NCBI GenBank assembly: GCA_951406725.2
Contig: OX597833.1
Span: 73,222,001-73,286,000 of the forward strand
Origin: Octopus vulgaris
Taxonomy: Eukaryota
Direction of reading: 5' to 3'
DNA: 64,000 nucleotides
The notes under the pieces are model-generated. The model worked only from the letters and a program-made list of their open reading frames with translations. It ran no database searches and was not told the DNA's origin. A program made the position numbers and the translations under genes. How positions within the stretch are numbered: the stretch's first letter is position 1; every line of letters starts with the position of its first letter. Positions 10,055 to 64,000 of this stretch are shown here, piece after piece.

Positions 10055-11818
10055 CACCCACACTTCGGTTTCCTTCGTCCCACTCATTCCTACACACCCA
10101 CACTTTGGTTTCCTTCGTCCCACTCATTCCTACCCACCCACACTTCGGTTTCCTTCGTCCCACTCATTCCTACCCACCCACACTTCGGTTTCCTTCGTCC
10201 CACTCATTCCTACACACCCACACTTCGGTTTCCTTCGTCCCACTCATTCCTACCCACCCACACTTCGGTTTCCTTCATCCCACTCATTCCTACACACCCA
10301 CACTTCGGTTTCCTTCGTCCCACTCATTCCTACCCACCCACACTTCGGTTTCCTTCGTCCCACTCATTCCTACCCACCCACACTTCGGTTTCCTTCGTCC
10401 CACTCATTCCTACCCACCCACACTTCGGTTTCCTTCGTCCCACTCATTCCTACCCACCCACACTTCGGTTTCCTTCGTCCCACTCATTCCTACCCACCCA
10501 CACTTCGGTTTCCTTCGTCCCACTCATTCCTACCCACCCACACTTCGGTTTCCTTCGTCCCACTCATTCCTACCCACCCACACTTCGGTTTCCTTCGTCC
10601 CACTCATTCCTACCCACCCACACTTCGGTTTCCTTCGTCCCACTCATTCCTACCCACCCACACTTCGGTTTCCTTCGTCTCACTCGTTCCTACCCACCCA
10701 CACTTCGGTTTCCTTCGTCCCACTCGTTCCTACCCACCCACACTTCGGTTTCCTTCGTCCCACTCGTTCCTACCCACCCACACTTCGGTTTCCTTCGTCC
10801 CACTCGTTCCTACCCACCCACACTTCGGTTTCCTTCGTCCCACTCGTTCCTACCCACCCACACTTCGGTTTCCTTCGTCCCACTCATTCCTACCCACCCA
10901 CACTTCGGTTTCCTTCGTCCCACTCATTCCTACCCACCCACACTTCGGTTTCCTTCGTCCCACTCATTCCTACCCACCCACACTTCGGTTTCCTTCGTCC
11001 CACTCATTCCTACCCACCCACACTTCGGTTTCCTTCGTCCCACTCATTCCTACACACCCACACTTCGGTTTCCTTCGTCCCACTCATTCCTACCCACCCA
11101 CACTTCGGTTTCCTTCGTCCCACTCATTTCTACCCACCCACACTTCGGTTTCCTTCGTCCCACTCATTCCTACCCACCCACACTTCGGTTTCCTTCGTCC
11201 CACTCATTTCTACCCACCCACACTTCGGTTTCCTTCGTCCCACTCATTCCTACCCACCCACACTTCGGTTTCCTTCGTCCCACTCATTCCTACCCACCCA
11301 CACTTCGGTTTCCTTCGTCCCACTCATTCCTACCCACCCACACTTCGGTTTCCTTCGTCCCACTCATTCCTACCCACCCACACTTCGGTTTCCTTCGTCC
11401 CACTCATTCCTACCCACCCACACTTCGGTTTCCTTCGTCCCACTCGTTCCTACCCACCCACACTTCGGTTTCCTTCGTCCCACTCGTTCCTACCCACCCA
11501 CACTTCGGTTTCCTTCGTCCCACTCGTTCCTACCCACCCACACTTCGGTTTCCTTCGTCCCACTCATTCCTACCCACCCACACTTCGGTTTCCTTCGTCC
11601 CACTCATTCCTACCCACCCACACTTCGGTTTCCTTCATCCCACTCATTCCTACCCACCCACACTTCGGTTTCCTTCGTCCCACTCATTCCTACCCACCCA
11701 CACTTCGATTTCCTTCGTCCCACTCATTCCTACCCACCCACATTTCGGTTTCCTTCGTCCCACTCATTCCTACCCACCCACACTTACATTTCCTTCGTCC
11801 CACTCATTCCTACCCACC
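10055..11818. repeat. 40-bp minisatellite, ~44 near-identical copies (CACTTCGGTTTCCTTCGTCCCACTCATTCCTACCCACCCA)
   Basis: Directly visible tandem array with no spacers; intronic in the PLEKHB-like gene. Confidence 0.98.
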
Positions 11819-13846
11819 TCATAACTTGAAGCTCAAGGTTGACACCTCATTACCATTATTTATTTTATCTCTTTCCAGTGCCATCCTACTCACTCATCCC
11901 CTTTCTTCTAAAATGTGGGGAGCCATGTAACACCTCTACAGCAAAAATCTCATTTTGCTCTGGGCCCTTCCCTAATATTTCATCTCCTTGTATAAAGCCA
12001 TTCCCACAGAGTTTGTAGTATTGCAGGTTGCGTAGTGATCTCACTTCTGCTAGAGGTATGAAAAGAGTATCCCGCTCACGCTATGAAGTGGTTGGCATTA
12101 GGAAAACCATCTGGTCATAGAAACTACAGCAGCAAGACAAGCACTGGGATACGATGCAGTCCTTGGATCCATTGTATCCTGTCAAATTGTCCAACCCATT
12201 CTCAGCATGGAACATTAAATAGTGATGATGATGATGACTTATAACTACACACACACACACAGTTATGCATGTCATCATTAACGTGCATATATAAGCTTGT
12301 GTGTTTATGCTAACAATGCACCAATGCAGCTGCAGAGTTGCATAACTTGAGTTTGTCTATAATATTTGAGTAAAAGCTGGAGGTGTTTTTGTTTAATTTT
12401 TCTTCTTTCCTTTTTGGTGTTTGCGACAAAAATGGGAAGAACTCCATAACTGTTTGGTGTCTGTTACTGGTTCACAAATAGTTGACTGTAGTGGTGGTGG
12501 TAAGATGGGGTAAATCACCATTGCTGTTCTGTATTTCACATAGTGTTGGATTTTTCCCTTTGTCATAATATTTCTGTTGCAATGCAATGTCTTTGTTGTG
12601 GTGGGATGGTCATTGATGGCATGGTTAGAAATCATATTACTTTTCAAAATAATGAAAAATAAGTAAAATGCCTTTGTTATTTCAAAGCTGCTTGTTTGAA
12701 TCACTGAGTAACACGAGGGGCCGACTCTGGTGAGTTAGTTATTAAAAGAGTTAAGATCATTAATATCATAACTAAGAATTACATGACCTTTTAAAGATCA
12801 GCTTTTAGTGGTTTGATTTTGATTTGGTGGAATTTATGTGATGGTAGGTGTCTTATTATCAAACAGCATAATTCATCTCAGCTCTCCAATAATGGCACAT
12901 TCAGTGTCGTTCTTTTCACAGTCTGCCACTAAACATTTGTGACTGTCAGTCCCTAAATGCCTATGTCCATCTGGGGATGTTTTGTCATTGATGTTGAGTG
13001 GAATTGTGTTGGTGGAGGAGAGGAGTTCTGGCTGATGAAGGTGGGGGGGGGTTGTGATTTTGCTTTGTTTGAATGATGTTGGTGTGATGTGTTATACTGT
13101 TTGTGTGTTGTGTGTGTGTGTAATGTGCAGCATTGTGTGTTCTTTACCTTTTCTTTTCGGATTGATGAAGTAAATTGCTAGTCAAATCCTGGGGTTGATG
13201 TAATTGACTAACCCCCCGCCCTGCCCCACTTCCCCATGTAAAACTGCTGGCCTTGTGTCAAAATTTGAAACAATTCTTATTAATGCATTATTTCACATCA
13301 TTTGAAATTTCAGAGGGAAGGTTTTGATATTCTGGGGTGGGACGACTGGCCAAATACTTGAAAACTAACAAGCAGCAAAGCAGAGCTGCTAGAATCTCAT
13401 TGCAGTAAATTTGGAAACCCTGCTCTGGTTGGCATTTGTAATTTTTTTCTTTTTATATTTACTGTGAGGATGGCATCAACATTGTGACTACATTTTCTTC
13501 TATCCATTTCTCTCTTTTTGTCAGTAAATTCCCATTGATGGATACACATGATAATGAAAGGCCTAGAATTTTCCTTCCGTTTGTGTTAGAAAAAGTACTG
13601 ACCTTCAATTAATCCCCTTTTACTGTCACCTGCATTTTTATTATTGTCATTTGTTTAACAGGGAAATTTACTTAGAATGTGTAATTTATTGTTGTTCTGT
13701 TTTTAATCCTAACCCTAATTTATAGTACCTGCGTAACATGTAATTTTATAAAACTATTTTCACAGTCAGTCAACCCTCAGCTTTAGCATCCATTTGCATC
13801 AGTGGTGCTATGTGTTAGTTAATACCTGTTTTTTCTCTTTTTACAG

Positions 13847-24051: not shown

Positions 24052-25500
24052 CCAGCTGAATTACCCGGAAAAGCGGGGAGGGGGTATTTTTCAGTTCCCA
24101 TTCTCATTCCACTGTTTCATGTCCTGTCCCATTCCTTGTTCAGTTGCCGTTTAAATCAGAAATAGATTTACAAATTCACGCTGACGTGGGATAGATCTAC
24201 AAATAGTGGCAAGTAACACAGTTGAATATCATAAAACTGATTGATTGTAATGGTAAGGTAATATCATCCAAGTTGGCTTGGTGGATGGTTGGACGGATGA
24301 GACGATTGACCATGGGCAACTATGAAACGATTGATGGTTGATTATTATCAATTTTGCAGAGCCTCTTGATATACTACAAATTTGGTCTTGCACTCTGGAG
24401 CATAAATAAACAAATGATTAGGATTGCCGACTCTTGGCATCATATTCTTGATTGTAAGTTGTGTGCCATTGCAAAGTTTAAGTGAGTCTGCGTTTCTTAA
24501 AAGCATCACTGGTGTGCCGGTCTTGAGGTGCAAGTTGTGAGGTGGGAGGCTTGCCGATGCCAGGCTATTCAAACCTTCAGCCAGCTCAACCCACCCTGGA
24601 TGGATGCTCTCTCAAGACAAGACAAAACTTCAGTGGGATGGTTCAAAACTTCCTGGGAGTTGAGCACAGAGTCAATTGATTTGTAACTGCAGTGTTCACC
24701 AAGCAGCTGATCCAGGAGTTGAGGTTCAAATCTTCCACTGCCACATTCTTTGGCATTGAGATGGCACATGTTCCCACCCCAGATTTGGAAACATTGTAGC
24801 CATTAGTTCTTGATATCTGATACAATGTGTCCAAAAGGCAAACTAACCTGACCACCCTGTTCACCAACCAGAGGGCCGTTACCAACGTCCAGTAACTTCC
24901 TCATCACCACTGAACTGCACTGTGCTCCTTTCCTCAGAAAAGGAAAAATTTGGCTGCTATTTCCAGCATGCCCTGCTACCACAAAACAGCTATTTGTGAT
25001 AAAGGACCCACCATTATCACAAATAGCTATTACATGGTAGCAGAGTGTGCTAGAAATAGCAGTCATCACTTTTCCTTTTCTGAGGAAAGGAACCATTTCC
25101 ATGTGATTTTGATGCCAATACGATAGTTAATTCATTAAAGCGTGTGTGTTAAATGATAGGTAAAAATTCAAGAAGCAAAGTATTAAGATTTGCTCTCCCC
25201 TTCACTAAACACATTCTCTCTCTCTCCCCTCACTAAACTTCTCTCTCTCTCTCTCTCATTCTTTCAGTCTCCTCCTCTTTGCTGATATCAGCCAACCCTC
25301 ATTATGCCACCACATTTCCCTCAACAGGCTCTTCACCTAACACTTTTTGCACCCTTTTCATTTTATCATATAATAGCACCCCACCACCTCTGTAGGGGGC
25401 CCGTTATCGATTTTTATTGAAATCCAATTACCCGATAATTGAACTGGATATTAGGTCAACATGTCTGCAAATTTTGAAGATTGGTTCACTAATAATATAA
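24052..25500 (-). mobile_element. Non-autonomous/decayed Helitron with PIF1-like helicase fragments
   Basis: Fragments KLLDVGNG, PKNVAVEDLN, LPPHNLHLKTGTPVMLLRN...LCNGTQL, TKFVVYQEAL. 3' end on the - strand: hairpin CCCG-CTTTTC-CGGG, then CTGG|T at 24052. The 5' boundary is approximate. Confidence 0.8.
24926..25091. mobile_element. Hairpin (MITE-like) insertion inside the Helitron
   Basis: TCCTTTCCTCAGAAAAGGAAAA..GCTGCTATTTCCAGCA..AGCTATTTGTGATAA / TTATCACAAATAGCT..TGCTAGAAATAGCAGT..TTTTCCTTTTCTGAGGAAAGGA. The GCTAGAAATAGCAGC motif recurs elsewhere (e.g. ~22748, ~30758). Confidence 0.75.
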
Positions 25501-37524: not shown

Positions 37525-39820
37525 CCAGTACCTTCGCCAGTTAAACAGTCAACACAGATTCAGATATTCAGCAAGAACAGTAGCAGTTGCAGAACATTAA
37601 CAGACACCACCGAATGACCAATGCACACACATTGAGGGAATCGTTGACCCCCATCACATATTAAACGTGTTTCATAAAATTTTAGTATATTACTGGGCAT
37701 AACTACAGATTTCTGGGCGATCTTTCGATATGGGAATCCCTTATAAACCACGTGTGTTTCTTTACATTTGTGAAGATGATCGTCGGTATCTGTAAAAGAT
37801 TTTAATATTTTTAATATGGTTTTAGCATACCTTCAGCTTTCTCTTAGCTTATATTATTATAGTATATTCTCTATTTAGTTTTGTTACAGTAATGTAATGC
37901 TATTTATTGTTTTCTATTGGGAAATAGATTATTTTATTTGGCTTTTTTGAGTAAGGGTGAATATAATGACTGAACGTCACTTATAACTTAAGTGTTATCA
38001 TTATACACAAATCCGAGCTACAGTATATAATGCCATAGAGAAATATACTCATGAAACGCTATGAATATTAACGACATGTATGTATAATATTTTCTTCGTG
38101 TTCGTTTAACCGCTTTAAGAAAATATAATTTAATGATTACAGAAATGCATATTTATTTATACTCAGTTGAAAAAAAAACGTGAAGAGAAACATTTTCTTA
38201 ATTAGTTTTATTATATAAATATAACATTTTATATTATTTACATTAGAAAGGAAAGATAAGTACGACTATATATTCATTCGCTAATTCGTAAATCTAATAG
38301 ATTAATCAACAATTCAAAATAGACTTGTTGATATTTTCTTTGGACATGGCATGAAGATCACCAATGTCTCAAAGGAGTGAGTGTCGTGGAGTTCAGTTAC
38401 ATCCAACAAACACTAAAGTTTTTCCCAAAATCAACTTGACTTAAAAGAATCGAAATCCATTACAAATATTCTTTACGTAACTTTTTAGAATCTTTATATG
38501 AGCAGTTATATTAACCAATGGAAAAAGCAAAAATAATAATTCTTCGGCAATACATTACGTCATATTGCCAATTGGCGCCATATTTCAAAATAGCTAAAAT
38601 GGCAATTTGTTACAATGGCATTGGGGTGAAAGGGGATCTTTTGAAGTCAGCGTGAAAGCGAAAGAGACAGAGAGAGCGCGATTGTATGAGGGAAGTTCTT
38701 TTGAAGCTGACGTGAAGCGGAAGAATTTATGTGCGCGCGCGCGTTTGATGGGGTGGGTGGGGTGAGACAGAAAGTGTGGTGTGTATGTGAATTGCTTTTG
38801 TTGGGGTGTGTGAAGAGACAGAGAGAGCAATGGTGCTGGTGTGTGTGAGAGATAAATGAATTTTTTTGTAGTGAGTGAATGTGTGAGTGATTGACAGAGA
38901 AAAAGCGAGAGATAGAGAGAGAAGTTATGTATGTATGAATGGCTTCACTGATACACACACACACACACACACACACGCCAACTTCAAAAGAATTTCCCTG
39001 ATCAAATCGCGGTCTCTTTCGCTTGTCCCCCCCCCCTCACCCGACTTTGGATGATCATAACTTTCAGAAAAATGGACATTTTTCAATGAAATTTTCTACG
39101 AATATGTGTTATATCATGTAGATTCCGAATATACAAAATTTTGGTGAGATTGTGTTTTAGTAGGGAGTCGGGTGGAGAATTTTAGAAAATTCACCGGAGT
39201 CCACTTTAAAGCGTCTTAACTTTCAAGAAAATGGATATTTTTTAATGAAATTTTCTACAAATATACCTCGGACTATGTAGATTCCGAGGACATAGGAATG
39301 TGGAGGGAAAACAATTGGGGGCTATTTTAGAGAACCGTTCCCCACTCACGAGTGTTTCTGAACAAGTCCATATTTATAGAGAATTTCATTAAAAAATATC
39401 CATTTTCATGATTACGACGAATTGAAGTGGACTTCAGTGAATATGCCACATATTTTACGCACTTGAGAAATAATTTCTGATGGACAAGGGGCTTTCACAG
39501 TCTTCATATTCTTAACTACTGCCAAGAAGAATAGTTGGACCTTCACTTCTGTTCACATTAGGTCAGATCTCTCACATTTAGTAGCTTTTCATATTTGCAA
39601 GTTGTTCGTTTTGACATTAAGATAGTGGGAAGTAGTGACGAGGGGTGTATGAATCAATTTTGGAGTTTCCTCATAGAAAATTTGAAATTAATTGTTTTCT
39701 TTTTTCCATATTACTAATCTCCATATTTTTCCACATAGACTGAAAAAAAAAATTCGAAAAATAGTGAAAAATTTAAAATTTGGAGTGGGGAGGGGGAATT
39801 GAAAATTATGAAAAAATGGT
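35880..39820. mobile_element. Large foldback/TIR-type element with long inverted termini; left arm interrupted by an RTE-tail insertion
   Basis: 35880-35962 + 36541-36635 is the reverse complement of ~39636-39820 (e.g. AATTTCAAATTTTCTATGAGGAAACTCCAAAATTGATTCATACACCCCT). Internal motif AAAATGGATATTTTTTAATGAAATTTTCT occurs in both orientations. TTCAATC is duplicated at 35956 and 36541 around the insertion. Confidence 0.7.
37430..37521. repeat. (AG)n microsatellite
   Basis: Directly visible. Confidence 0.98.
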
Positions 39821-41649: not shown

Positions 41650-42520
41650 ATAAGGCATTAACTTAAGCATTGAGGATAAGATAATTCCTCAGTTATCCTC
41701 ATGATCATCTATGTATTGAGAGCCACCATGTATGTGTGCACGTATGCATGTATGTATATTGTTATTTCATTTTATTTCAAAATTTCATGCCAATAGATTG
41801 AAGGCTCCTTCACTGGAATTTCAACAATATCAACTGGGTATGTATGTATATGTAGATTTGTATGTTTTGCTTTAAGTACGTATTCTCATACATATAGCTA
41901 CATATCTAGACATGCTCATATAGACTTCAAGGCTAAACTTCTGGAAAGATTTACAGATTTCTATAATTTGAGGGATGGCTTGGATTTGTAGTCTTCGAAT
42001 CAGCTTTCTCCTTTCTAGTTTTGAGAAGCCGAATTTCTCAAGATTATTAGTTAGGTAATGTGTTACATATCCCAGGGCCCCCTTAAATACAGTTATAAAC
42101 CTGAACTTGTAACTTGAATAGAGTTACAAGATTCTTCAACAGTTTGGTGTAGATATTTTCTTTTTCACCAATCTTTATGTTAACATCCACTGGGCAGCTG
42201 ATTTCTTCCACAACTGTACACAGTTTCTCTTCTCTGTCCCAAATCATTATGTTTACATTTTATTGAGGTCTTCACCAGTACTCTTTATTATGAGTGGCTA
42301 TAGCTCCTAATTATTTTCGCTTCAGTGTTATCCTTTTGATGGATTTCATTATAATGAGTCTGAGCCACAACATCATGTCTCATCAATACCGTGATAATGT
42401 TTTCGGACAACTACTTATGATGTGGGTAATATCTTCGGTGTTAACTTCACAAATTCTGCATCAGTTGTCACATTTTGCTGCTTTTCCTGTGTCTCTCCAT
42501 TTTGTACATCAGGTCTAAGG
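41650..42520 (-). mobile_element. R4/Dong-like (RLE) LINE 3' fragment
   Basis: Colinear with 61860-62780 (shared GTAGATTTGTATGTTTTGCTTTAAGTACGTATTCTCAT...). Confidence 0.7.
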
Positions 42521-43222: not shown

Positions 43223-43691
43223 TGTGTGTGTGTTATGAGAAAAGTACAAATTTATTTAAACCTGTCTACATTACATGCATTTATGATCGAAGTGCTTACC
43301 GTTAAACTAGAATGTTACACCTGCAACCGTAGTGAGGCCTGACCACAATAAATGCCATGCAGCCAGGTACGAGACGGTAGTGTTAAGCTGCTGCCTAAGT
43401 ATTAGGACTTCAGTTGAGCCTAAACTATGCTACCCTACCTGACTTACAGGTATAGTATCTGTGCTGTTTCATGTCTAAATATTTCACCTGACAGGTCGGG
43501 CGCTGAACGAAATGGTTTATTCCAGTTACTATATCCTCGTACGGGTCAAATTGTGTTTATTTAAAATTTAAGTAAAACCAAAGAAATAAATTTGTTTTAA
43601 TATACTTAATGCTTGTTGTAAGAACTTCTGTTTTATTTTGAATCTTGAATTTCATTTTAGTGACTCTTAGCCATTTGATATCCAGATTGTT

Positions 43692-43889
43692 TTCGCGGAA
43701 GTGATTTTCTTTTCTACAAAACTTTCACTTTCACACTTTCACACTTTAACATCGTTTACTTCTGCCATTCTCTAAGTTTCGTTAAACAGTTTTTACTAAT
43801 TCTTCAGTTGTCTCACTTCTTCAGTCCAACTATATTTTTCGAATCCGTTCACAGTATCCAATATTGCAATCGGGTTTCGTTTCTGAGAA
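43692..43889 (+). promoter_or_regulatory. Cluster of IRF/ISRE, STAT(GAS) and ETS-like motifs upstream of the TPR-TIR gene
   Basis: TTCGCGGAA (43692-43700, TTCN3GAA); CGGAAGTG (43696-43703, ETS); ACTTTCACTTTC (43721-43732, reverse complement GAAAGTGAAAGT, IRF-E) followed by ACACTTTCACACTTT; GGTTTCGTTTCT (43873-43884, ISRE-type) overlapping TTCTGAGAA (43881-43889, GAS). Confidence 0.55.
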
Positions 43890-44096
43890 CAGACACTCAC
43901 TGTGTTGTTAGAAAATATTTGTTGATCGGACACATTCAACTGCATTGAACATTTTTATATATAATATATCATTTATAGAAATTTACATTTTCTTTTTGGC
44001 AAAATATACCAGAAAAAAAGTCGACAACAAGGAAACAAAACTATTTTGTTTAGTTTTATAAATTTGCTTTAAAGGATAAAAAAAAAGAGACAGAAA

Positions 44097-44147
44097 ATGG
44101 CTGAAGAAATCGAGGAAATTATTGAAAAATTGGATGGAATTCTACTT
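44097..44147 (+). CDS. TPR-TIR protein, first coding exon (MAEEIEEIIEKLDGILL)
   Basis: Good Kozak context (AAAATGG), 17 codons, GTAAGT donor at 44148. Phase 0 matches the acceptor at 50626. The acidic N-terminus resembles the TTC22 start (MAELE...LD.LI). Confidence 0.72.
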
Positions 44148-44348
44148 GTAAGTATATCAACATATTTACAAACATGAACAAATATTAACTCTGTGTTGTT
44201 TAGTGTGTAGGTATGTATATATACGTGTGTATGTATGTAAGTAGGCAGCTATGTATGTGTGTATAGATATGTATGTATAACAAGTTTATTTCAATAATTC
44301 TTTAAATATAACAATACTAACAAAAACATATAAAGCATAAAACAGATT

Positions 44349-44415
<67 letters not shown>

Positions 44416-44444
44416 CTGTGTATGCGTGTGTACGTGTGTGAATG

Positions 44445-44482
<38 letters not shown>

Positions 44483-45130
44483 GGTGACGGAAGCTGTGAA
44501 GAGAATGAAAGTCGGTCTTGGATATCAAAGTGTGCGTGGCAGATGAAAACAAGAAAGAAACACATAAAACACGCCATCAAAACAGCTGCGAAGCAATGAC
44601 AGATAAAATATTCTACCTGGAAATTGTGCCGATTTGGCATTTGTATGCATCTTTGTGCATAACACTTGCATGTCTAGACATGTGGTGCGTGTAAGTATGT
44701 GGGAAGAAATAATCGTGTGTTTCTAACAGGATTAGTGCCATAGAAAAGTTTGAAATGTCAAAATAACCAATCCACATCCTTTGCGCATTCGAACGCACGA
44801 AACCTTTGGTCTGTTGAGATTATCGAAGTAATTAGTAGACAGAAACTCCCCAAGAAGGAAACAACTGCACCTAACTGACTTTAACCAAGAAAAAACAAAC
44901 ATGAATGAATAAAGTTCCCGAAAGTTTACTATCGGAGCTGGTCATAAAATTCTCATTAGAATTGCCGAGGAAGACGAAAAAATATCTGACACTTGACAAA
45001 AGCAAAGTCAACAACAAGGAAGAGAAGAGAATCCATCCACTTTACACATTTATTTAGAACAAGTTTTCTTTAAATGTGTCCACTTCAAGTGTAAACAACT
45101 GGAAAATTAGAGATCCCCGTTTGTCTAATA

Positions 45131-45660
45131 GGGCCTTTTCGGGTCTGTAAGGGTGTTTTCGCGTCTGTAAGGGTGTTTTCGGGTCTGTAAGGGCTTTTCC
45201 GGGTCTGTAAGGGTGTTTTCGGGTCTGTAAGGGTGTTTTCGGTTCTGTAAGGGCTTTTCCCTGTCTGTAAGGTTGTTTTCGGGCCTATAAGGGCTTTTCC
45301 GGGTCTGTAAGGGTGTTTTCGGGTCTGTAAGGGCTTTTCCGGGTCTGTAAGGGTGTTTTCGGGTCTGTAAGGGCTTTTCCGGGTCTCTAAGGGTGTTTTC
45401 GGGTCTGTAAGGGCTTTTCCGGGTCTGTAAGGGTGTTTTCGTGTCTGTAAGGGCTTTTCCGGGTCTGTAAGGGTGTTTTCGGGTCTGTAAGGGCTTTTCC
45501 GGGTCTGTAAGGGTGTTTTCGGGTCTGTAAGGGCTTTTCCGGGTCTGTAAGGGTGTTTTCGGATCTGTAAGGGCTTTTCCGGGTCTGTAAGGGTGTTTTC
45601 GGGTGTGTAAGGGTGTTTTCGGGTCTGTAAGGGCGTTTTCGGGTCTTTAAGGGTGTTTTT
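45131..45660. repeat. 20-bp minisatellite (~26 units; alternating GGGTCTGTAAGGGTGTTTTC / GGGTCTGTAAGGGCTTTTCC gives a 40-bp higher-order unit)
   Basis: Directly visible; in intron 1 of the TPR-TIR gene. Confidence 0.97.
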
Positions 45661-45948
45661 AATCCTCTGCTTCAGGGGAGACAACCCTTCCTCATTACCA
45701 TTTTTAGATGTTAAAACTTAAATCTCGATTTCTGAGCTTTTCCTTAACGTCCGCCACGTAGAAAGTTAAATGTTTTTTGCCTTTGTCTAGTTTGATGAGC
45801 TGTCCACAAGGCTTTGGCTTTGTGGATAAGCAGCCTTTGGTAACTCTTTGTCTAAAATTAAAATATTTGTCGTCATAATTACTGCTCCATTCTTTAGAAT
45901 GTGCTTCCTTTCTGATATATGTTTTTATTGATTATATAGTTAATAAAT

Positions 45949-46004
<56 letters not shown>

Positions 46005-46833
46005 AGAAAGAAGCACACTTTAAAGAATAGAGCAGTAATTGTTACAGCAGAAATTTTATATTGGACACAGAGTTACCCAAGGTTTTGCATCCACAAAGCA
46101 AAGCCTTGTGGACAGCTCGTCAGACTCTACATAAATACAAAATTTTAAATATCTATGTCGCAGACGTGAGAAAACGCTCAGAACTCGAGGCCCACAATGT
46201 ATGTTACCACCAGTACAAACACCACACCTAGAAGTAATGACCTATTCAGGACCAGCAGCTTGGAGTAGGTATCCGCCTTTCCCAGTTTTGCCACCTCAGA
46301 AGATGACCAAATATTTATCTTCGACACTGATGGGATGACCAGACCCATGCCATATATTACCAAGGGTGTGAATAGTATATTGGTTCTGCTAGTACTTTGT
46401 TCAAGCAATGTTTTCTTAACCACCAGTCAGCCATCAGAGTCCCAGAAAGACGGTTTGTCACGTCATTGGCACCTCAAAGAACAAGGGACGCCATGTGACA
46501 TCAGGTGGAAATTAATCAATCATCTGGGGCCTGTATATTAATGGAAGTGGTCGTTGCAGAGAGAGCCAAAATTCTTAAGGACTATAAGAAACCTGGCACA
46601 TTAACTAGCTGTAAAGAAGTGTTTTCTAAATGCATCCACTTCAAGTGCTGCTTACTGGAAAATTGGATCTCTCCATTTCCTAGTTAGGCCTCGTTGGGTC
46701 TATAAGGGTTTATTTTGCCCTCTGATTCAGGGGAGTAACAAAAAACGTTATTGAAGATGGGTTAAGCTATATTCCTCAAGGTCTGAGTGGTTAGTCATGT
46801 CTGTGACGTAGATATTTAAAATTTTGTATTTAT

Positions 46834-46897
46834 ATAGAATCTGAGGAGCTGTCCACAATGCTTTCCTTTGTGGATACGAAACCTTGGGTAACTCTGT
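46834..46897 (+). ncRNA. Hammerhead ribozyme motif in Penelope pLTR copy
   Basis: ATAGAAT-CTGAGGA-G..GTCCACAA/TTGTGGAT..C-GAAAC-CTTGG-GTA-ACTCTGT. Homologous, more decayed copies at ~45785-45850 (+) and ~46065-46130 (-). Confidence 0.62.
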
Positions 46898-47399
46898 GTC
46901 CAAGATGTAATATATTTGTTGTAATTATATATGTGTTTATATATATATGTATATATATATAATGTACTGATCCGTGAAGAAAATTCAACAAAAAAAAGTA
47001 CTTCATCTGGTGAGAGATAAATATTATTTATTTAAAGGTCACAATAGATGCATTAAAACCCTACTAATAGTTTCATATGTGGAGAGAACTCAAACATATC
47101 CTTCAGGCACAAACGAACTAAAGAAATTGAATGATAGAAGAAATGCAAAATAAACTGAGAAGGCAGCTTATAGAAAACACAGACAGTAAACAAGAGAAAA
47201 AGGAAAAGAGAAAAACTGAAACTAAAATGTCCAAAATAAAAAGTAAAAAGGTAAAAGAGCAAACCTCCTCCTTTGACCTTAAAGGATAAGGCTGGAAAGA
47301 TATCAAGTCGGTCAGGAATAGGCAGAATTTTCCAATTCTTTAAAATGTATTTATACATATGCGTGCAAGCAGTGAAAATTCCTGACCTGGAGTTCAATA

Positions 47400-47950
47400 G
47401 AGAGTTAGGATCTTAGATCAGAACAGGATCTGTGCTCTTTCAGCCAAACAAAGTCTACATTCATTCGATCCCTTCACATCAAGTATGGATTACTTTCCAT
47501 TTAATCACATGAAGTGTTTCAATATCTTTCAAAGTCCATACGTAGCTAGCGAACTTTGTAGTTTTCATTTTGTCCCTATGTCAGGAGGAGGAGGAGGAGG
47601 AGGAGGCTATATGACTGGCATGAGTGATTTCTAAATTCTTTCACATAATCCAGTAGACGTCTTCTCATCAGTTGTATTATTGTTTCGGGTTGCAGAAACT
47701 TCTGCCTCATATAAGATAGGTTTAGTCGCACAGCGTTGGTTAAGTGGAGAGGATCCTGGGTCGTGACAGTTGCAGTTGGGGCTATATGATAATTTCACAG
47801 AAAGCCTATTAAATATTTTCCTGTATCTGTGAGTGGCTGAAAAGTGTTTGTCTAGGAATGATAGGAATCCTTAACCAATGTTAGTTTTATATTAAGGGAA
47901 CAGAGAGGGGTGAAAGTTATTTGCTTTACCTTTAAGAATAATGCTTGAAC
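47400..47950 (-). mobile_element. Penelope-like fragment (RT-endonuclease linker)
   Basis: The - strand reads FTPLCSLNIKTNIG*GFLSFLDKHFSATHRYRKIFNRLSVKLSYS. Confidence 0.7.
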
Positions 47951-48129
47951 AGCGATATTATGCTATTAACACTGTTCATGCTTTATTCTGCACTTGAAAA
48001 TATTTCTCTCCATATGTGTCTGTCTCAATACATCTCAACACTTCCAATAAAGCAAACTTTGTCTACATATAATGTAATCTGAATTTCACATGCAGCGTCT
48101 ATAAAAAAGCTAAGTTTATAAGTTTAAAA

Positions 48130-48244
48130 ATTGCAGAAAAATTTGTCACTGGGCATCTTAGCTTAAAGATAAAGTGCTTGACTGGTAATCACAGAGATGA
48201 GTGTTCAAGTCTCATGGCTGGCTGCTGACAAATTTTTCTGCAAT
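48130..48244 (+). mobile_element. tRNA-like sequence enclosed by a perfect 19-bp inverted repeat
   Basis: ATTGCAGAAAAATTTGTCA / TGACAAATTTTTCTGCAAT flank GCATCTTAGCTTAAAGATAAAGTGCTTGACTGGTAATCACAGAGATGAGTGTTCAAGTCTCAT, a decayed tRNA-Thr-like sequence. Confidence 0.6.
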
Positions 48245-48604
48245 ATAAGGATACGATACTTTTCATGCATTATTCTGTGCTTGAAAATCTTTATCTCCAT
48301 ATTTGTATGCATATATATATATATATATACATGTATTAAAATTAATCAAAGGACATACTAAGTATGTCTACCTGCTGATAACAACTACAGAAATCAACCA
48401 TCCAAAGGCAAACGGGCTAAGACAATCTCAGCATGCATTCAAGTATTTGAACTCACATGGACTGGTTTCTAGACTGGCATTATAGTCTCACCTTCCTCAG
48501 CATACGTTACCATGATATAGAGCCCCAACCCATCATGATTTGTTTTGCACCGAATCATGGCAGTCACCAGTGTGAAAATTCCTGGGGAATTATTTGTTCC
48601 ATAT

Positions 48605-48665
<61 letters not shown>

Positions 48666-48832
48666 GAAAGGGAGGGAGTGAAATCTATTTGTAAATTGGC
48701 AGTCCCAATTAGGACAATATTACTACCTTTTTTTATCCCCAGGAAAACATGTTTTTCAGCTGGCTTCCGGCACACAGCTGTGTCCTTATACCTCAAACAC
48801 CGACTCAAATGTTGGACAGTTTCTTTAGAGGG

Positions 48833-48866
<34 letters not shown>

Positions 48867-49540
48867 TACACTCACGGAGTGGTTGGTGTTAGGAAGGGCA
48901 TCCAGCCGTAGAAACACTGCCAGTATTAAAATATGCTTGACTACTTGAATATAATCCATGAATCTTATTAATATTAATTAAAGTCTATATTGTAGTGTTA
49001 TAGATATGTACATAGTGCTCAAAACTGGTTTATAGAACTGGTTTAAAGTATAAGGAAATTATAAAGATAAAACGTAGGCATTTGATTCTTAATGCAGCCA
49101 ATCTAGACTAGATTTTAATTTAAATGATTTTAAGATTTCCCACATTTCCAAACAGTAAAGATTGCAGTCATGTCTATCACTGACAAAAGGTTTAGCATTT
49201 AACTCCCAGACTTTTGTGGGAGTTGTTATCGTTTTATTCCCACTTTCTAAATGTATGAAGACGATTACAATTTAAAGTTGGAAGAAGTGGTATCTACATA
49301 AGTGAACGTGTGTAGATTAGTTTTAACATTACATTTCTATACAATGTTTTTGGTCAGATATCTATTTCCTGGTGGACATTTGAAGAAACTAAAAAAACTG
49401 ATGGTTAATCTGAAGGATCATAAAATAATTTCAGGGAGAATCCTTCATATTCGTTCTAATTATGTTTAATCCATTGCTTTGGCAGACTCTTTGACTGGGG
49501 CTATGCTTTCTAAGTAAAGATTTTGTATGATGGTCTAGAG

Positions 49541-49886
49541 TAGTGCTTCTCAACTGGGGTCCATGTGGTCCCTGAGAGTCCATAGAAGAATTTGGGGGGG
49601 GGGTGTCCACGTAATAAAATAGTAAATTTGGAATTCACAATAATATTTTAAGGACCCCTGAAAAAATTTTGATTTTGATGTATAGATTGGTATGTATTGT
49701 AAGAAATAGATAAGTTTATTTCTCTAACATTTTACATAGTTCCACTTACACAAGTTTATGTGAAAACCAAAATAGGAATTTTGAAAGAAGTTTCTATAAT
49801 TCTAAACATCGAATGGCTATGAGGCTCCACCAGAATAGAATAGTAATGAAAGGGGTCCATACATAAAATATGGTTGAGAACTCCTG
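49541..49886. mobile_element. hAT (Charlie/Buster-like) MITE
   Basis: TIRs TAGTGCTTCTCAAC / GTTGAGAACTCCTG; perfect 8-bp TSD GTCTAGAG (49533-49540, 49887-49894). Confidence 0.88.
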
Positions 49887-50625
49887 GTCTAGAGGATTGA
49901 TGTTCTAGAGAGGGAGGGAGGCTGGGCATAGTCAGTGTAGGACTTAGATATATATAGAGAGAGAGTATGACGAAGTGAGGAGGAGGAGGAGAGATGTGTA
50001 AGTCAGGTGGGCATGGATAGAAATAACAAGCATGGAAGAGCAGAGGTCTCAGTGGTGGTGGCAGTAGTAGTAGTAGTAGTGGTAAAGAGAGAGCCTTGAA
50101 TTATATGAAAACTGAAAACAAGAGTGTAATGAGGAATGGCAAGAGGAGAAGGGAGAGGAGCTATAACATTTTTGGATGAAAGACCAAAAAGAAAACATGT
50201 CTCTTAAACATGAGAGAAGGTTTTCTGGAATCTCATTGAAAGTATTTCTAGTGTTGCATCAGTTTGATGAAAAATGATGGTAATAGTTGCTGACCCTCTA
50301 CAAGACTCCGCTACTCAATGACCCCCTGACCTACATACATACAGAGCCATGTAGCAATTATGCATGCACACACACAGACGTTAGTGAGTACTAAACCAAT
50401 CCTTCTTCCACAAAACTGCTATCATCTGGAATTCCATTTCTGGTGACAGTATTTTTTTTTGAAAGGCATCAAACTCTGGAACCCCAAATGAACTTCCACT
50501 GCATCAGCCTTATCTAACTTGGAGGGTTTAGCCTTGTCTCAGTAACCTGGAATCTTGCCAACGATAATGGTGATGCTTTTTTAATACACATTTTATACAT
50601 ATTCACTATTTTGTTTTTCTTTCAG

Positions 50626-52800
50626 GATGACGAAAGCAGAAGAGAATTGTACAGAGAAAAAATTCAGAGATTTCCGAATTTAATGGGAGAATATTTTCAC
50701 TACACCAAAAATCATTGGTTGTCTCTTTACAAAAAACTGGAAAATTCATTAAGTAACGATACTGTGTCTGGTTTAGAAGATGAGATTCACCACAAGAATA
50801 CCTTGGTGTTTATTCAGTGGGAGCTAAATAAGAATATTGAAGCTGAAAGATTAGCCAATGAAGTTCGAGAAACTAATCCAGACAACCTCTTGGCATTAAC
50901 CAATCTTGCATTCATTCATCTGTACAATGAAAATATGAATAAGTTAAAAGAGGTTATGGTTTATCTTAACAATCTTGAAAAAAGAGAAGATTTCCAACAG
51001 ATAGAAGCAGAAGGTAAAATGAATGTTGCTTATTGTTTAAGAAGAATATCATTCAATGATTATGAGAGGGCTATCCTACTTTACAAAGAGGCTTCTAATG
51101 TTTGTCCAGACAATTATTCATGTCTATTTGGTGTAGCTTTGTTACAGTATCGTTGTTTAAGAAAGATCTCTGATGAAGAAAAAAAACGCAAAATTAGTAC
51201 AGAGGCAGTACAGTACTTAGAGAAAATACGATGTGCTTTTCCTCGCTGTATTGACAAGATCCTAATGGGGAAAACGTTAGCATTATTAGCTTTGTTTAAA
51301 TTGAGATTTTCAAGGAAATGTAATATTCTGAAGAATCAGGAATTCAAAGAAAAATATGTTCAAAGAGCTCTTCATTTTGCCCCTGATGACCGTTTTGTTT
51401 TGGAAAAGTGTGCTAAATTTTATAAGACTTTATATAAGTTTGATAAAGCAAAAGAATTGTTTGTAAAAGCAATCGAAATAAATGCAACAGCATTTTCTCA
51501 TCATCATCTTGGATTAACTTATCAAAAAATACATATTCCAGAATTCACATGTTTCACTGCAAAGAAGGAGTTTTCTGTGGAAGAAAATACACTTGGAAAA
51601 CTTATTAAATGTCCTAGAACTATTCCTGAATTGGAAAGGAATGAATTCATTGGCAAAATAGAATATCACTTTAAAGAAGCTCTTAAACTTTCTCCAGAAA
51701 ATGGAGCTGCTCTCTACGATTTGATTTTGTTATATTTGGCTTTGAAAGAATACGAAAATGCCCAGGAGTGTTGTGAACAATTTAAAACAAATATTAAAAT
51801 ACGAGACGTTAGTTTTCATATTTTGTATGGAAGATTATATTTCATACTAGCAGAAGAAGAAAATGATGAAGAGTTAAAACGAGAATTTAGAGACGATGGA
51901 ACAGATAGGTTCTTCCTTGCTATTAAATCTGCTATAGAATTTCTTCCTTTCCAGAAGAAGCTGAAAGACATTTGGGGAATAAAGGATATTATGACTGATG
52001 TGTATGAGCATGGGTATATTGAGTATAATGAAAAACTGTTGGAATTAATTGAGTCAGTAGAGGAACTCCGTGATGATGAAGAACTTTATAATAAACTTCT
52101 CGTGGATTGTGATAAAAGTGAATTATCACGAAAGTTACGAAAACTTTGTAAAAATAAGCAATATTTTAAAGCTTTTCTTTGTCTTAGGTTTTCAGAAGTT
52201 AAGCCCCATGAAGTTGATGTAAAGCTAATGAAACAAATTTATGTAAATTTAGGAAAGCATTTCACAGAAACAGAGCCTGACTGTAGCAAAGAGTTCTTCA
52301 GAAAATGTTATGAGCTTTGTTTTGGATTTGGCTCTGAAACCAATGCTAAACCGGGGTTAGCATGTTCAAAGAATGACATCGTAACTAACTTTCATTATGA
52401 TATCTATATTTTAACATCCCCAAACTCTGAAGAACTGGCTGAAAACATTGGAATGAATCTAGACAAATACTTTGGGTTAAAAGTTACATTTGGTAATCGT
52501 GACTATATATTGGGAAAATATAAAACTGTAAACCTTCGTACCATATTAGAAAACAGTTGCAATATTGGAATTTATTTAGAACATTCAAAGACTATATCAC
52601 CAGAGTTTTTAACCCACACTGAATATGCCAAACAAATCATGGAAGATCGACAACCTAAAATTGGTCAAATTTTTATGATCAGTAACCATGAAGATATAGA
52701 AATTCCAAAACATTTAGAAAGTTTTCCTCAATTGAAATGCCAAAGTGGACACAGAGATGACATTGTGAATATTTTTAATTTTCTTTGCAGTCTATCTTAG
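50626..52800 (+). CDS. TTC22/IFIT-like tetratricopeptide-repeat protein with C-terminal TIR domain, large second exon
   Basis: TTTTTCTTTCAG acceptor, 724 uninterrupted codons. TPR motifs: NPDNLLALTNLAFIH, AILLYKEASNVCPDN, ALHFAPDDRFVLEKCAKFY, AFSHHHLGLTY, FKEALKLSPENGAALYDL. TIR motifs near the C-terminus: HYDIYIL, GLKVTFGNRDYILG, NLRTILENS, SPEF..HTEYA. Confidence 0.9.
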   Translation, partial: DDESRRELYREKIQRFPNLMGEYFHYTKNHWLSLYKKLENSLSNDTVSGLEDEIHHKNTLVFIQWELNKNIEAERLANEVRETNPDNLLALTNLAFIHLYNENMNKLKEVMVYLNNLEKREDFQQIEAEGKMNVAYCLRRISFNDYERAILLYKEASNVCPDNYSCLFGVALLQYRCLRKISDEEKKRKISTEAVQYLEKIRCAFPRCIDKILMGKTLALLALFKLRFSRKCNILKNQEFKEKYVQRALHFAPDDRFVLEKCAKFYKTLYKFDKAKELFVKAIEINATAFSHHHLGLTYQKIHIPEFTCFTAKKEFSVEENTLGKLIKCPRTIPELERNEFIGKIEYHFKEALKLSPENGAALYDLILLYLALKEYENAQECCEQFKTNIKIRDVSFHILYGRLYFILAEEENDEELKREFRDDGTDRFFLAIKSAIEFLPFQKKLKDIWGIKDIMTDVYEHGYIEYNEKLLELIESVEELRDDEELYNKLLVDCDKSELSRKLRKLCKNKQYFKAFLCLRFSEVKPHEVDVKLMKQIYVNLGKHFTETEPDCSKEFFRKCYELCFGFGSETNAKPGLACSKNDIVTNFHYDIYILTSPNSEELAENIGMNLDKYFGLKVTFGNRDYILGKYKTVNLRTILENSCNIGIYLEHSKTISPEFLTHTEYAKQIMEDRQPKIGQIFMISNHEDIEIPKHLESFPQLKCQSGHRDDIVNIFNFLCSLS

Positions 52801-55620: not shown

Positions 55621-58479
55621 TACACACACATATATATATTTATATATATATGTATGTATATATGTATGTATATATATGTGTGTGTATATAAAATAAAAGA
55701 AGGAAAATGCACACACTTTATATAGTTCTAATATATGTTTAAATATATTTTATATTGTGGTTATAGTAAGGTTTGGCTTCCCAGTTTCAAAGATTGACAT
55801 AGTTTAAAGTTTCATGTAGTGTGTGGAGAAAAGCATTCCCTGGACAACGTTTGACTCATTGGCCTCAGATGGAATTGAACTTCTATGTCTATTGTGTAGA
55901 CAAGGCAGCAATGTTTTGGAATGTTGTCGTCAGCATCATCATCATCTGCACCAGTTCTTGATATTGTAATTACCTTTCAAAATGAAAATAAGGATTCTCA
56001 TGGTCCTTTACCTCCAGAAAATGACAATCTCGACAACCCATCACCTCAAGACACGTGAATGTGTTTAATTGTAAATTCCAGTTCTTTGCAAGTAGCAGTG
56101 ACGTAATTTTTGTGCAAAAGCCATTAAAATTTCACAGGATATTTCAATTAATGTTTATTCTTTCTCCATTAACCAATTTGTATTGATTTACAGGGAATAT
56201 TTTGAAGTGAAGATGTGGTGTGTTAAGTGTATTCAAACTGAAATACTGTGTCCTTTGATAAAGCCCTTAATCTGATACCATGTAGGTACCACTGCCTGCT
56301 GGTTTCAAGGCAGCCAACCTGTGTATATGATGAATATGTTGATGTTGTTTGCTAAATATTGATAAACAAAACTAAACAAAAAAAGAAAATGATTTGTATT
56401 GTTGTTCAATCTCGTTTATATATTTCTTTCTATTTTACTGAATTGAAAACAAGTTCCAAAAGAAAGGAAAAATTATAGTAAACAACAGTTCATTTTTGTG
56501 GTATGTACTTTAGGTACCCTAGGTGGATTTATATTTCACACTATTCTATATTACTTCACATGAATGTTATAATGAAACAATGTTGAGGATTGCCTGTATG
56601 TCTACAACATGAATTAGGGGTACACTTAACCAATTTTGCAAGTTAGATAGTGGCCTCGCGGTTACCGGTGCAATAACAAAAGCACCCACTACACTCTACA
56701 AAGTGGTTGGTGTTAGCAGTTCCTGTCTAACCGTTTAACCCATGCCAGTATGGAAAACAGGTGTTAAATGATGACGACTTTCCTCCAGTGGAAAAGAACA
56801 TAACTGACAAAAGCAAATAGTAAGAAAAATGAGAAAGAGAAAAGAAATCAGTGAATAACCAGGGGTATACAGACACCCCACTCAAATATAACACATGCTA
56901 GAAACAACCAGGTGACTTCCCAAACACCATCTGATGTTTGAAGTAGGACACTAACAAAGTCAAAGACCTTGTCTGTTATCCGCAGACCCTAGAATGTCTC
57001 AAAAGCCACAGATTGGAAAATACAATCTAGCAGATTCTACAAAATATTTCAGTGTTTCACTTCATTTATTTACTGTTGCAGTAACTCCATCCATCATCTC
57101 TGCTGTGGCATTAAGGATGTGCCACAGAACAGATGAGTTACAAACGATGCTGAGCCATATGAGTCATCTGCCTTGAAATCAGGAATTTAAAAATGTGCAA
57201 AAAATGGTTTTGATTTGGTAAACTAACTGTATCCATTCCATCTTTAGTAATAAAACATTTGAATTATCAATAAATTAGGGGTTTATTCTCAACTTCAAAT
57301 AACGAAGGACTACACTGATATTAGTTAATAGATAACACAAAGCGCGTGCACACACACACACAAAACTAGCTTTTCTTCGGACAAGGACATCAGCAAGAGA
57401 GAGAGAGATGAAGTTAATAGATGTGGACATCCAGAAATGGGAGGAGGTTGCAAATGACTGCCCATACTGGAGCCAAAAACTGCAAAAAGAGAATGAAGTG
57501 AGGGGAAGAGAACCTGGAACTTACCACAACGGATCAATAGTGATGGCAGAGGGCTTCTTCGAATGCAACCATTGTCTGTGTGACTGCCACTCGCATGTAA
57601 GCCTGTACAGCCACCACAGCAGATGTGGCACCACTATCAACAGCTAACACAAATTCTCAGGCACACATCCGTGGTCCCTTGAAATCAACGGATGCCTACT
57701 GCAGTGGGAGCACAGAAGCTATTGACCCGTCCACACTTGTTAGTTTGAGAAAGTGAAACTGGTACATTTAAAAAGTATTATTTGTTCGTTCTAAACAGTA
57801 TTGAACTGCTACAGTAACTGACCATGTCAAAACTCGTTACAAATGTACACTACACGTACTTCAATTAGTTATATGTGCATGAATGGAGGTTAAGTGTGCG
57901 GGCTTTGATAATTAACACTTCGTTGGAATTTCCCAGTAGTTTGGCTGGCTGCATGTGAAGACAAGAGGGACCAAATATTAATATATTTCAGTTTTCATAT
58001 ATTTTTTACATCGCCGGCATCGTTAGTGATTAAATGTCTTCATGGAAATAATTGAATGCAATAACATGAAGCAAGGAGCTTGGTGGTTAGAGATCTTCTG
58101 TAATATAACTTAGTACATAATATAAAGAAAGTAGTTCATAGTTATTGAAGAGGAAATACGTAGAAAGTGTTTAAACTATTTTACGTAAGTAATGTGTTTG
58201 TGATACAATGGAACAATGGAAGATTGGTGCCTTTTGTTAAACATGACAAATATTTAAAATAAGAAAAAGTAAAAGTAGGTGACACAAATGCTGTTTTTAT
58301 TTGAATGTACATTAGTTCTGCCCACGTATATTTTGCTCGTGAATTTATTTGAAAAAAAAAAAAAACCCGGCTTGGACCTTTTCTGTTTCCCTTCACTTTT
58401 TGAAATTTTAAAATTAAGTGAAAATGTTCAAATTTGGTATATTAGACACCTTTGAGATTAGACCCGAGGAGTGTCGTTA

Positions 58480-61620: not shown

Positions 61621-61859
61621 CATTAAGAAAATTTTAGTGAGCATCCGTAAGCTGCAGGTTGTTCATGTAGGGTGTACAATGACTACCCAGTGGGGTGGGG
61701 TGGGGGTCGATGTGGTGGTCGTATATGAGGCTGAAGTAGTAACTGCCACTGGTAGCCAGAGTAACAGCCTAAAGAGCAGCAGTACAGCTGATAACAGCAA
61801 TGACAACAATAATAGCGGCTACAGTGATGGTGACAGTAGCATTTCAAGCTGATAGACAT

Positions 61860-62070
61860 TGACTGAAGCATCTAGGACAAGATAATTTCTCAGTGATGGT
61901 CATCCTCATCTGTGTGTTGAGAGCCACACTGTACGTATGTATATATGTATGCCGTTATTTAGTTTTATTTTTTCAAGATTTCATGCCGAAAGATCCAGGG
62001 CTCCTTCATTGGACTTTCAACAATATCAACAGGATATGTATTTATGTATGTATGCTTGCATGCATGCATG

Positions 62071-62112
<42 letters not shown>

Positions 62113-64000
62113 GATTTGTATGTTTTGCTTTAAGTACGTATTCTCATGCATATAGCTGCATGTCTAGACATGTTCATATAGACTTCAATGCTAAACTTCT
62201 GGAAAGATTTACAGATTTCTATAGTTCGAGGGATGGCTTTCTCCTTTCTAGTTTTGAGAAGCCTAATTTCTCAGGATTGGTAGTTAGGCAGTGTGTTACT
62301 TATTCCAGTACCCCAATAAATACAGGTTTAAGCCTGAACTTGTAATTTGGGTAGAGTAACTAACTCCTCAACAGTTTCTTTTTCACTAATCTTTATGCTA
62401 ACATCCACTGGGCAGCTGATTTCCCCAACTGTACACGGTTTGTCTTCTCTATCCCATATCCTTATGTCAGGTCTATTATGTTCATATTTTATTGAGGTTT
62501 CCACTAGGACATTCTACCAGCACTCCTCATTATGAGTGGCTATTGCTTCCACTGTAATGTGGGTTCTTATTTCTTTGGCTTCAGGGTTATCCTTAAGATG
62601 GATCTCATTATACAGTGTCTTAGCCACACCATGTCTCATTGGAAGATAATACTGTGAAGACATTTTCAGACAACTGCTTATGACGTGGGTGATATCTTTG
62701 GTGTTAACTCCACAAGGTTTGCTTCGGTTGTCACATTTTGCTGCTTTCCCCATGTCTCTGTCCATTTTGTGCATCAGGTATTTGGTTGATATTTCCTCTT
62801 CCTGGATTGCTAATACATACCTTTCAAGGTGGGAGTAGTAATCCAGTTGTTGCTCTATGATAGACTGTTTTGATGATTAATATTATTATCATCTCAGAGC
62901 TTTCTTCAAAAATATCCATGTATGTTCTGCTGATATATGCTCATCCTCTCATCTGATGATATGTCGTGCAACTCTTTTGGCTATATATTTAAGGTTATCA
63001 GACAAGGAATGCTGCTCAAGGAGCTGCTTTACAAATCTTGTGATGTTATCAGCCTTATATATGCGAACTTGGTCAAGGGATGCACTTCGACACTTGATGG
63101 TTAAAAGATGTTGCCAAAGGGATATGATAGAACATTCAAAGCCAGTCTGGTTCGATGTTAAGTCTTTGCTACCTTGTTTTCAGTTTAGGTAGAGGCAGTC
63201 TATGTTGCTGTTGATGTGGAAGTTATGTGTGCTGGTTTGTATCTTCTGTATTTTCACAGGAATGGCTTGAATCTCATCAAGTGTCCAATCAAGTAGCCCA
63301 AATGCTGGTATTCCACCTGGCACTGCAAACACATTGTGGGCCAGTTTTATTGAATGCAGAGAGTTCCGAGGTCCATATTTTCCTTATCTGGCTGTAATAT
63401 TCTTTAGTGACATGTGTCTTGTTTCAGGTGCCATTGTAAGATATGTTTTCATCCACCCCAATGTACCTGTAACATTCCTCGTCAGATGCAGGGGAAACAG
63501 TTAAGTCATTGATGGTGTTGTTAGCCTGGTTTACTCTTTTCCCTCTTTTCACAACCATATAGCAAAAATTATTCTGACCAAACTTCAACCCTCTATCCTT
63601 TGAAAATGTTGTAACCTGGACAAGGCTCTTTTCATCTCATGCATAATTTTTGCAGATAGTTTCAAGTCATCCACAAAGAAACGGTTTGTAATTTTGGTCT
63701 TTCTGTTTCTTTGTGAACCGGTGAGATAACCTTCAGACTTCCTTAACATGAATGACCAGGGTTTACAGAAAGTATAAACAACATCACAGAAAGGCTGTCC
63801 CTTTGGAATACACCTCTGCAATACTGGATTCTATCAGTGATAATACAACTACTCCTTGCATCATGAACCACCATCCTTCAAGATGGTGGTCCACGATGAA
63901 GTCAGGTCAGCTATAGCTTTGACTATTCTCACAGAAACTGGATCACAGCTACAAGGGTATCACTATCAATGCTGTGTGACCTGGGTGTAATGCAGGAATA
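61860..64000 (-). mobile_element. R4/Dong-like (RLE) non-LTR retrotransposon relic, continues past the window edge
   Basis: RT motifs (RCIPKG, FFVDDLKL, YRYIG) and CCHC region (HVISSCLKMSSQYYLPMRHGVAK); many stops. Confidence 0.78.

Follow-up and report, generated by a model that had tools for sequence, protein, structure and literature searches.

IFITs are the textbook ISRE-driven gene family, and in vertebrates the Mx-type ISRE is read by ISGF3. According to passages in PMC3688568, mammalian IFIT genes have two exons and promoters that carry at least two ISREs in the same orientation, no more than about 200 bp from the start, and IRF3 and IRF7 switch on vertebrate IFIT promoters independently of interferon. 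The same passages report IFITs solely from jawed vertebrates, where they arose with interferon and gained their ISREs at that time; the survey excluded matches from acorn worm, amphioxus and cyclostomes and, in those passages, lists no mollusc (PMC3688568). The ISRE consensus, as quoted in part of PMC7245633, is RGTTTCN(1-2)TTTCY.

ISRE-based control has also been described in invertebrates. Passages in several reports state that molluscan IRFs bind ISREs (PMC13524488), that the oyster IFNLP promoter is activated by molluscan IRF1s, which bind ISREs, and that a shrimp IRF drives Vago4 (PMC13524488; bioRxiv 10.1101/2022.12.18.520954; PMC5869526), that sea anemone genes induced by poly(I:C) have IRF, STAT and ETS motifs in their upstream DNA (PMC8476169) and that Aplysia has seven IRFs and one STAT (PMC9334734). 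ISRE-driven invertebrate genes and a combined IRF/STAT/ETS logic are known already (PMC8476169), and the idea of an invertebrate antiviral regulon is not new in kind. A molluscan 'TIR-TPR' class shares the TPR and TIR architecture of the protein considered here, a comparison made by class name only (PMC4346834, PMC9334734); unlike the present case, the passages on this class contain no IFIT fold, RNA pocket or promoter. The literature searched, largely outside subscription journals and without supplements, yielded no cephalopod IRF or ISRE target, no ISRE-bearing IFIT-fold gene in invertebrates and no paper dealing with IFIT-like genes of octopus or other molluscs, or with the promoters of such genes. 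The gene identifiers occur in 0 papers, and octopus is mentioned solely for RNA editing in the relevant part of PMC12737575.

In this study, we analysed a cluster of transcription-factor motifs in a 64,000-nucleotide stretch of Octopus vulgaris DNA (the window). What is new is the presence of ISRE/IRF-type sites before a predicted IFIT-fold gene outside the jawed vertebrates. The segment 43692-43889 is, in our assessment, probably an IRF-driven promoter, inducible by virus or dsRNA, of an octopus IFIT-like TPR-TIR gene.

Gene structure and predicted protein

The gene lies on the forward strand and its coding part consists of two exons:

44097-44147, plus strand: first coding exon, 17 codons, followed by a phase-0 donor GTAAGT at 44148
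44148-50625, plus strand: 6.5-kb intron; the junction keeps the reading frame of the proteins of O. sinensis and O. bimaculoides
50626-52800, plus strand: second coding exon, the remaining 724 residues
50647-52176, plus strand: predicted IFIT-fold TPR region, residues 25-534
52390-52788, plus strand: predicted C-terminal TIR-fold domain, residues 606-738

The N-terminus of the O. sinensis protein confirms the ATG at 44097, and exon 2 shares 97.5% identity with O. sinensis LOC115221491 and 85% with O. bimaculoides LOC106878804. The best sequence matches in the PDB were IFIT5 (E 2e-8) and IFIT1 (E 8e-7). Structural comparisons used a model of the O. sinensis counterpart (97.5% identical; mean pLDDT 77.8), for which the top 12 Foldseek matches were all IFITs. 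This model aligned with the whole of human IFIT1 at Z 26.4 (rmsd 4.6, 412/430 residues), against Z 20.4 for the best non-IFIT chain. A profile of 22 sequences, comprising two octopus proteins and 20 long ones picked from 150 listed, was collinear with IFIT1 from IFIT1 residue 7 onwards (E 4e-25); in the profile search, no vertebrate names appeared among 12 matches of 7,999 candidates.

The C-terminal domain of the model shows a five-strand alpha/beta TIR fold, residues 606-738 matching the TIR of IL-18Rbeta (Z 13.4, rmsd 2.5, 127/143 aligned) and that of SARM1 (Z 12.8). Pfam gave no TIR in the window protein and TIR_2 in 2 of 35 long relatives, among the best five families listed for each; NCBIfam returned generic TPR matches only. 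Folding the C-terminal domain from one sequence gave a poor model (pLDDT 41.6), which was set aside. For the label 'TPR-TIR', under which the gene had been described from its sequence, the TIR is supported by structure but not by Pfam, and the label is too narrow, the TPR region having a predicted IFIT fold. In the alphaC region of the family alignment, a position set by eye, no acidic column is conserved; if the catalytic glutamate of NADase TIRs lies where we take it to lie, an adaptor-type TIR is favoured.

The pocket of the IFIT fold was compared residue by residue. In passages of PMC3950709, RNA binding requires K150, K257, R260 and W147, and the bound RNA lies next to R186/R187. The three most conserved of the 73 basic positions in the TPR region are R193, R157 and K284 (20, 17 and 17 of 20 relatives; median 4), which match IFIT5 R186, K150 and R260, while K281 (IFIT5 K257) is conserved in 15/20 and Y153 (IFIT1 W147) is aromatic in 20/20, figures inflated by the choice of the 20 relatives for their similarity to this protein. 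The positions of IFIT1 R255 and R263 are occupied by E277 and T285, neither of them basic.

Compared with vertebrate IFIT1/ISG56 and IFIT5/ISG58, the octopus protein shows a full-length fold match, in the model, a collinear profile alignment and several retained residues of the putative RNA pocket. The gene resembles vertebrate IFIT genes in its short first exon, an intron of some kilobases and one long exon, as far as the coding part is concerned, and in having several paralogs per species. It differs in a first exon of 17 codons instead of about one, and the protein in its 18% identity, in the acidic residue at the R255 position and in the predicted C-terminal TIR, IFITs being TPR-only proteins. 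We do not class it as an IFIT: it carries a predicted TIR domain and may belong with TIR-TPR or TTC22-like proteins, and its likeness to IFITs is one of fold and sequence profile.

Its TPR-TIR relatives form a large expanded family in molluscs and echinoderms, which may be linked to vertebrate TTC22. Clusters of similar proteins are likewise molluscan and echinoderm, and scallops have several uncharacterised members of both lengths. Seven shorter octopus paralogs (451-510 amino acids) without a TIR were among the matches listed, five of them named 'IFIT-like' by NCBI; the position of K151 is T in all seven. Short TIR-less forms of about 450-510 amino acids stand beside long TPR-TIR forms in both octopus and scallops (P0004-P0010, P0014, P0170, P0171), and one of them, P0010, retains a piece from just before the TIR. 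This distribution suggests that the TIR domain was lost repeatedly in the octopus and scallop short forms.

Several other elements were noted in the window. Transposon remnants comprise a mariner-type transposase fragment at 8725-8988 (plus strand) and, at 24351-24611 (minus strand), a fragment of a Pif1 helicase 2B that may come from a Helitron. Long minisatellites upstream (9871-11913, 80-bp unit) and in the intron (45130-45659, 20/40-bp unit) yield spurious long open frames. An interspersed repeat of about 900 bp flanks the gene in two copies (41650-42514 and 61850-62779; about 76% identical, same strand), a pair that could promote duplication of the locus.

The motif cluster

The cluster had been described as lying 200-400 bp upstream of the ATG, and its measured span is -405 to -208 relative to 44097. 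Its elements and the features around them are as follows:

43692-43700, no strand: GAS-like palindrome 1, TTCGCGGAA, at -405 from the ATG; pattern at background frequency in the window
43696-43702, plus strand: ETS core CGGAAGT, overlapping GAS 1; four CGGAAGY sites in the window
43721-43732, minus strand: IRF element GAAAGTGAAAGT, at -376 from the ATG; sole exact copy in 64 kb
43726-43751, minus strand: 8-bp tandem repeat (x3.2), adding GTGAAAG half-sites to the IRF element
43775-43783, plus strand: additional single ISRE half-site AGTTTCGTT, absent from the earlier note
43804-43826, plus strand: two TCAGTY hexamers, at 43804 and 43821, possible but weak start sites flagged by what we take to be an initiator-like pattern (2.2 per kb)
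43873-43884, plus strand: Mx-type ISRE GGTTTCGTTTCT, at -224 from the ATG; exact match to the consensus in PMC7245633
43881-43889, no strand: GAS-like palindrome 2, TTCTGAGAA, with four bases in common with the ISRE
43956-43964, plus strand: weak TATA-like AT run about 70 bp past the ISRE (pattern 4.9 per kb)

Both TTCN3GAA sites, the IRF element with its partial tandem repeats, the ISRE sharing four bases with the second GAS and the ETS core over the first were all found as the earlier note had them. The IRF element and the Mx-type ISRE have the same orientation and lie 213-376 bp upstream of the ATG. The TTC of GAS 2 is part of the ISRE, and the GGAA of the ETS core is part of GAS 1; sharing bases with their neighbours, GAS 2 and the ETS core are therefore not independent events. 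The IRF array at 43721-43751 doubles as a small tandem repeat. We also take GGTTTCGTTTCT to be the OAS-type form. Its assignment to the Mx type is confirmed in print, the chicken Mx ISRE AGTTTCGTTTCT being identical at 11 of 12 bases and differing at base 1 only, as given in parts of PMC7245633 and PMC6794983.

Departure from chance

The published ISRE consensus has two matches in the 64 kb (43873 and 57748; expected 0.39+0.31), and the IRF-E consensus, in the form assumed here, also has two (43721 and 57749; expected 0.13). Together these are three distinct strict sites, two of which fall within 380 bp of the ATG; by hand arithmetic, the probability of two of three falling in a given 500 bp is about 2e-4. 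As a background test, the 500 bp before the ATG were subjected to 20,000 dinucleotide shuffles. An ISRE appeared in 209 shuffles, an IRF-E in 123 and both in 22, two GAS sites in 797, any IRF site together with two GAS in 15, and the full motif set in none (0/20,000). In Markov simulations two tandem IRF sites per 500 bp occurred in at most 0.12% of blocks, and a set of 3,282 decoy tandem motifs, similar in frequency, had 23 members that matched twice in the promoter stretch, seven of these being the IRF word, ten GTTT/AAAC words able to overlap the ISRE and six AAAT/ATTT words. The tandem pattern behind these last two tests was devised after the sites were known, and more weight is given to the published consensus.

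The GAS sites behave differently. They are not enriched in the window as a whole (27 observed against 24.0 +/- 5.1 expected), and five GAS pairs within it lie no more than 200 bp apart. The earlier caution that short motifs arise by chance in AT-rich DNA applies to the GAS sites, which stand at background in the window, and much less to the IRF sites, both of which occur in only 22 of 20,000 shuffles; likewise, the comparison of motif density with background that had been proposed places the IRF-type sites above it and the GAS sites not. It is the IRF-type sites that carry the excess of the cluster over chance, and the GAS and ETS parts are weak.

These figures bear directly on the reading that the whole cluster is accidental: short motifs in an AT-rich, T-rich leader, multiplied by slippage of the 8-bp repeat and singled out post hoc because the gene looked immune. 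The background frequency of the GAS sites with their five close pairs, the tandem repeat within the IRF array, the second strict ISRE at 57748 and the TTT/TTC-rich composition of the region are what such a reading would predict, and a genome scan tests many genes. Composition-keeping local shuffles nevertheless seldom reproduced both IRF patterns, and the gene was recognised as IFIT-like without recourse to the motifs, an identity that predicts just such a promoter. We consider an accidental cluster unlikely.

The second strict ISRE/IRF-E site, AGAAAGTGAAACT at 57748-57760, lies 5 kb past the stop codon in non-repeated DNA with mildly raised CpG (0.7-0.9). An NF-kB-type site, GGGAAATTCC, is found 170 bp from it (57925-57934), and GAS-like sites at 57555 and 58039 flank it. 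No recognised gene start adjoins this ISRE, and no paralog first exon is present there. The possibility that 57450-58150 is homologous to the main promoter was rejected (score 33 against a background mean of 33.6). The site may act as a 3' enhancer or as promoter for a gene that went unrecognised. As an equally good ISRE without a recognised gene start, it indicates that strict sites occur away from the cluster promoter. Since, in addition, a predicted ISRE from dog that shares the GTTTCGTTTC core is outside the three named as responsive, of ten tested, in the relevant passage of PMC11871823, a match to the core is not proof.

Putative promoter context and candidate start sites

The cluster is embedded in the following region:

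43612-44096, plus strand: ATG-free, CpG-enriched, non-repeated promoter- or leader-like region

The 485 bp of this region contain 0 ATGs against 4.9 in local shuffles (P 0.002, post hoc). CpG o/e at the cluster is 0.8-1.15 compared with 0.37 for the window, in the top 4-10% of 500-bp windows, and the peak spans the cluster and exon 1. Repeats within the window cover 0% of the region against 20% overall, and derivation of the cluster from a repeat was rejected on this lack of self-repeat coverage inside the window. Ownership by another gene was likewise rejected: 148 of the 159 open frames of at least 70 residues were scanned, with three matches and no host gene near the cluster, although small exons would escape such a scan. 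An Rfam scan gave 0 matches. A search for paralog promoters in the window, by tblastn with ten proteins and a scan for similar first exons, returned only this gene. Another CpG-rich stretch, at 37600-38800 (o/e up to 1.5), may be a separate or alternative upstream promoter; words near 38555-38620 were read by eye as what we presume to be CRE-, CCAAT-, E2F- and YY1-like motifs.

Functional sites need not make an antiviral switch. They might instead support basal or haemocyte-specific expression through IRF1/2- or IRF8-like factors together with ETS factors, or a response to bacterial signals, and the ETS core adjoining the IRF array and the CpG-rich promoter would suit such a role. Passages in two reports also fit it: IRF1 and IRF8 of oysters take part in haemocyte proliferation driven by LPS (PMC13524488), and the ISRE of human PNPT1, which has the same core, is functional in the basal state (PMC9570217). 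The spacing found here differs, however, from that of the GGAANNGAAA composite, which has no local match around the cluster, and the predicted IFIT fold and pocket point to RNA sensing; such a role appears quite unlikely. The weakest alternative, and to us a very improbable one, has transcription start from a more distant upstream promoter, with the acceptor-like site at about 44074 ending a 5'UTR intron in which the cluster would be an intronic enhancer or inert DNA: donor-like AG|GTA sites at 43365 and 43448, the CpG-rich stretch upstream and the 'isoform X1' label of the O. sinensis record would allow it, but an intron has no need to avoid ATGs and the CpG peak covers both the cluster and exon 1, so that this caveat of the earlier note is weakened, though not removed, by the ATG-free stretch.

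Discussion

The reading we prefer is that of an IRF-driven, virus- or dsRNA-inducible promoter. The earlier note had assigned the gene to an invertebrate interferon-like antiviral regulon, and this proposal is strengthened because the gene proves IFIT-like, the IRF sites exceed chance and the DNA is promoter-like; its GAS and ETS side is weak, and membership of a regulon is here drawn from one promoter. Viral or double-stranded RNA would activate an IRF factor, by analogy with oysters through RLR-MAVS-TBK1/IKKe, and IRF dimers would turn the gene on by binding both to the array at -376 and to the ISRE of Mx type at -224. ISGF3 would not be needed at the octopus promoter, because IRF3/IRF7 drive vertebrate IFIT promoters without interferon. 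A second, cytokine-driven wave through a STAT homodimer at the GAS sites can be put forward only tentatively. Given the single STAT of Aplysia, molluscs are unlikely to form an ISGF3-like complex, and a STAT homodimer would have to supply any input at the GAS sites; since GAS 2 and the ISRE overlap, binding by IRF and by STAT at that point would alternate and not be simultaneous. More speculatively, the induced protein may bind the 5' ends of foreign RNA in a predicted basic pocket of the IFIT type and signal through its TIR, and the shorter TIR-less paralogs may serve as plain IFIT-like binders.

The promoter resembles vertebrate IFIT promoters in its two IRF sites of the same orientation, with the octopus distance counted from the ATG. 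The octopus is, to our knowledge, a host without type I interferon, and unlike the vertebrate Mx-type ISRE a molluscan version would need to be read by IRFs alone. In this it is like oyster CgIFNLP, shrimp Vago4 and the poly(I:C)-induced genes of Nematostella, which show IRF-ISRE logic without interferon and IRF, STAT and ETS motifs together; the validated targets CgIFNLP and Vago4 differ in being cytokine-like and not IFIT-fold.

An evolutionary extension can be drawn, although we regard it as somewhat unlikely: IFIT-fold genes and their IRF/ISRE control would predate interferon and reach back to the bilaterian ancestor, in which an IRF-induced IFIT-TIR receptor sensed foreign RNA 5' ends with feed-forward TIR signalling. 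Such a receptor would survive in molluscs and echinoderms as a large family still uncharacterised, and vertebrate IFITs would be its TIR-less descendants.

Should the sites be inert, the IFIT-TIR protein would still be of interest alone. If the ISRE/IRF promoter of this octopus IFIT-fold gene is functional, the pairing of the two would be possible without interferon, whether by descent or by convergence. It would provide cephalopod immunology with a ready reporter for antiviral signalling, and it would make the members of a large invertebrate family, so far uncharacterised, candidates for sensors of RNA ends that are coupled to signalling through TIR.
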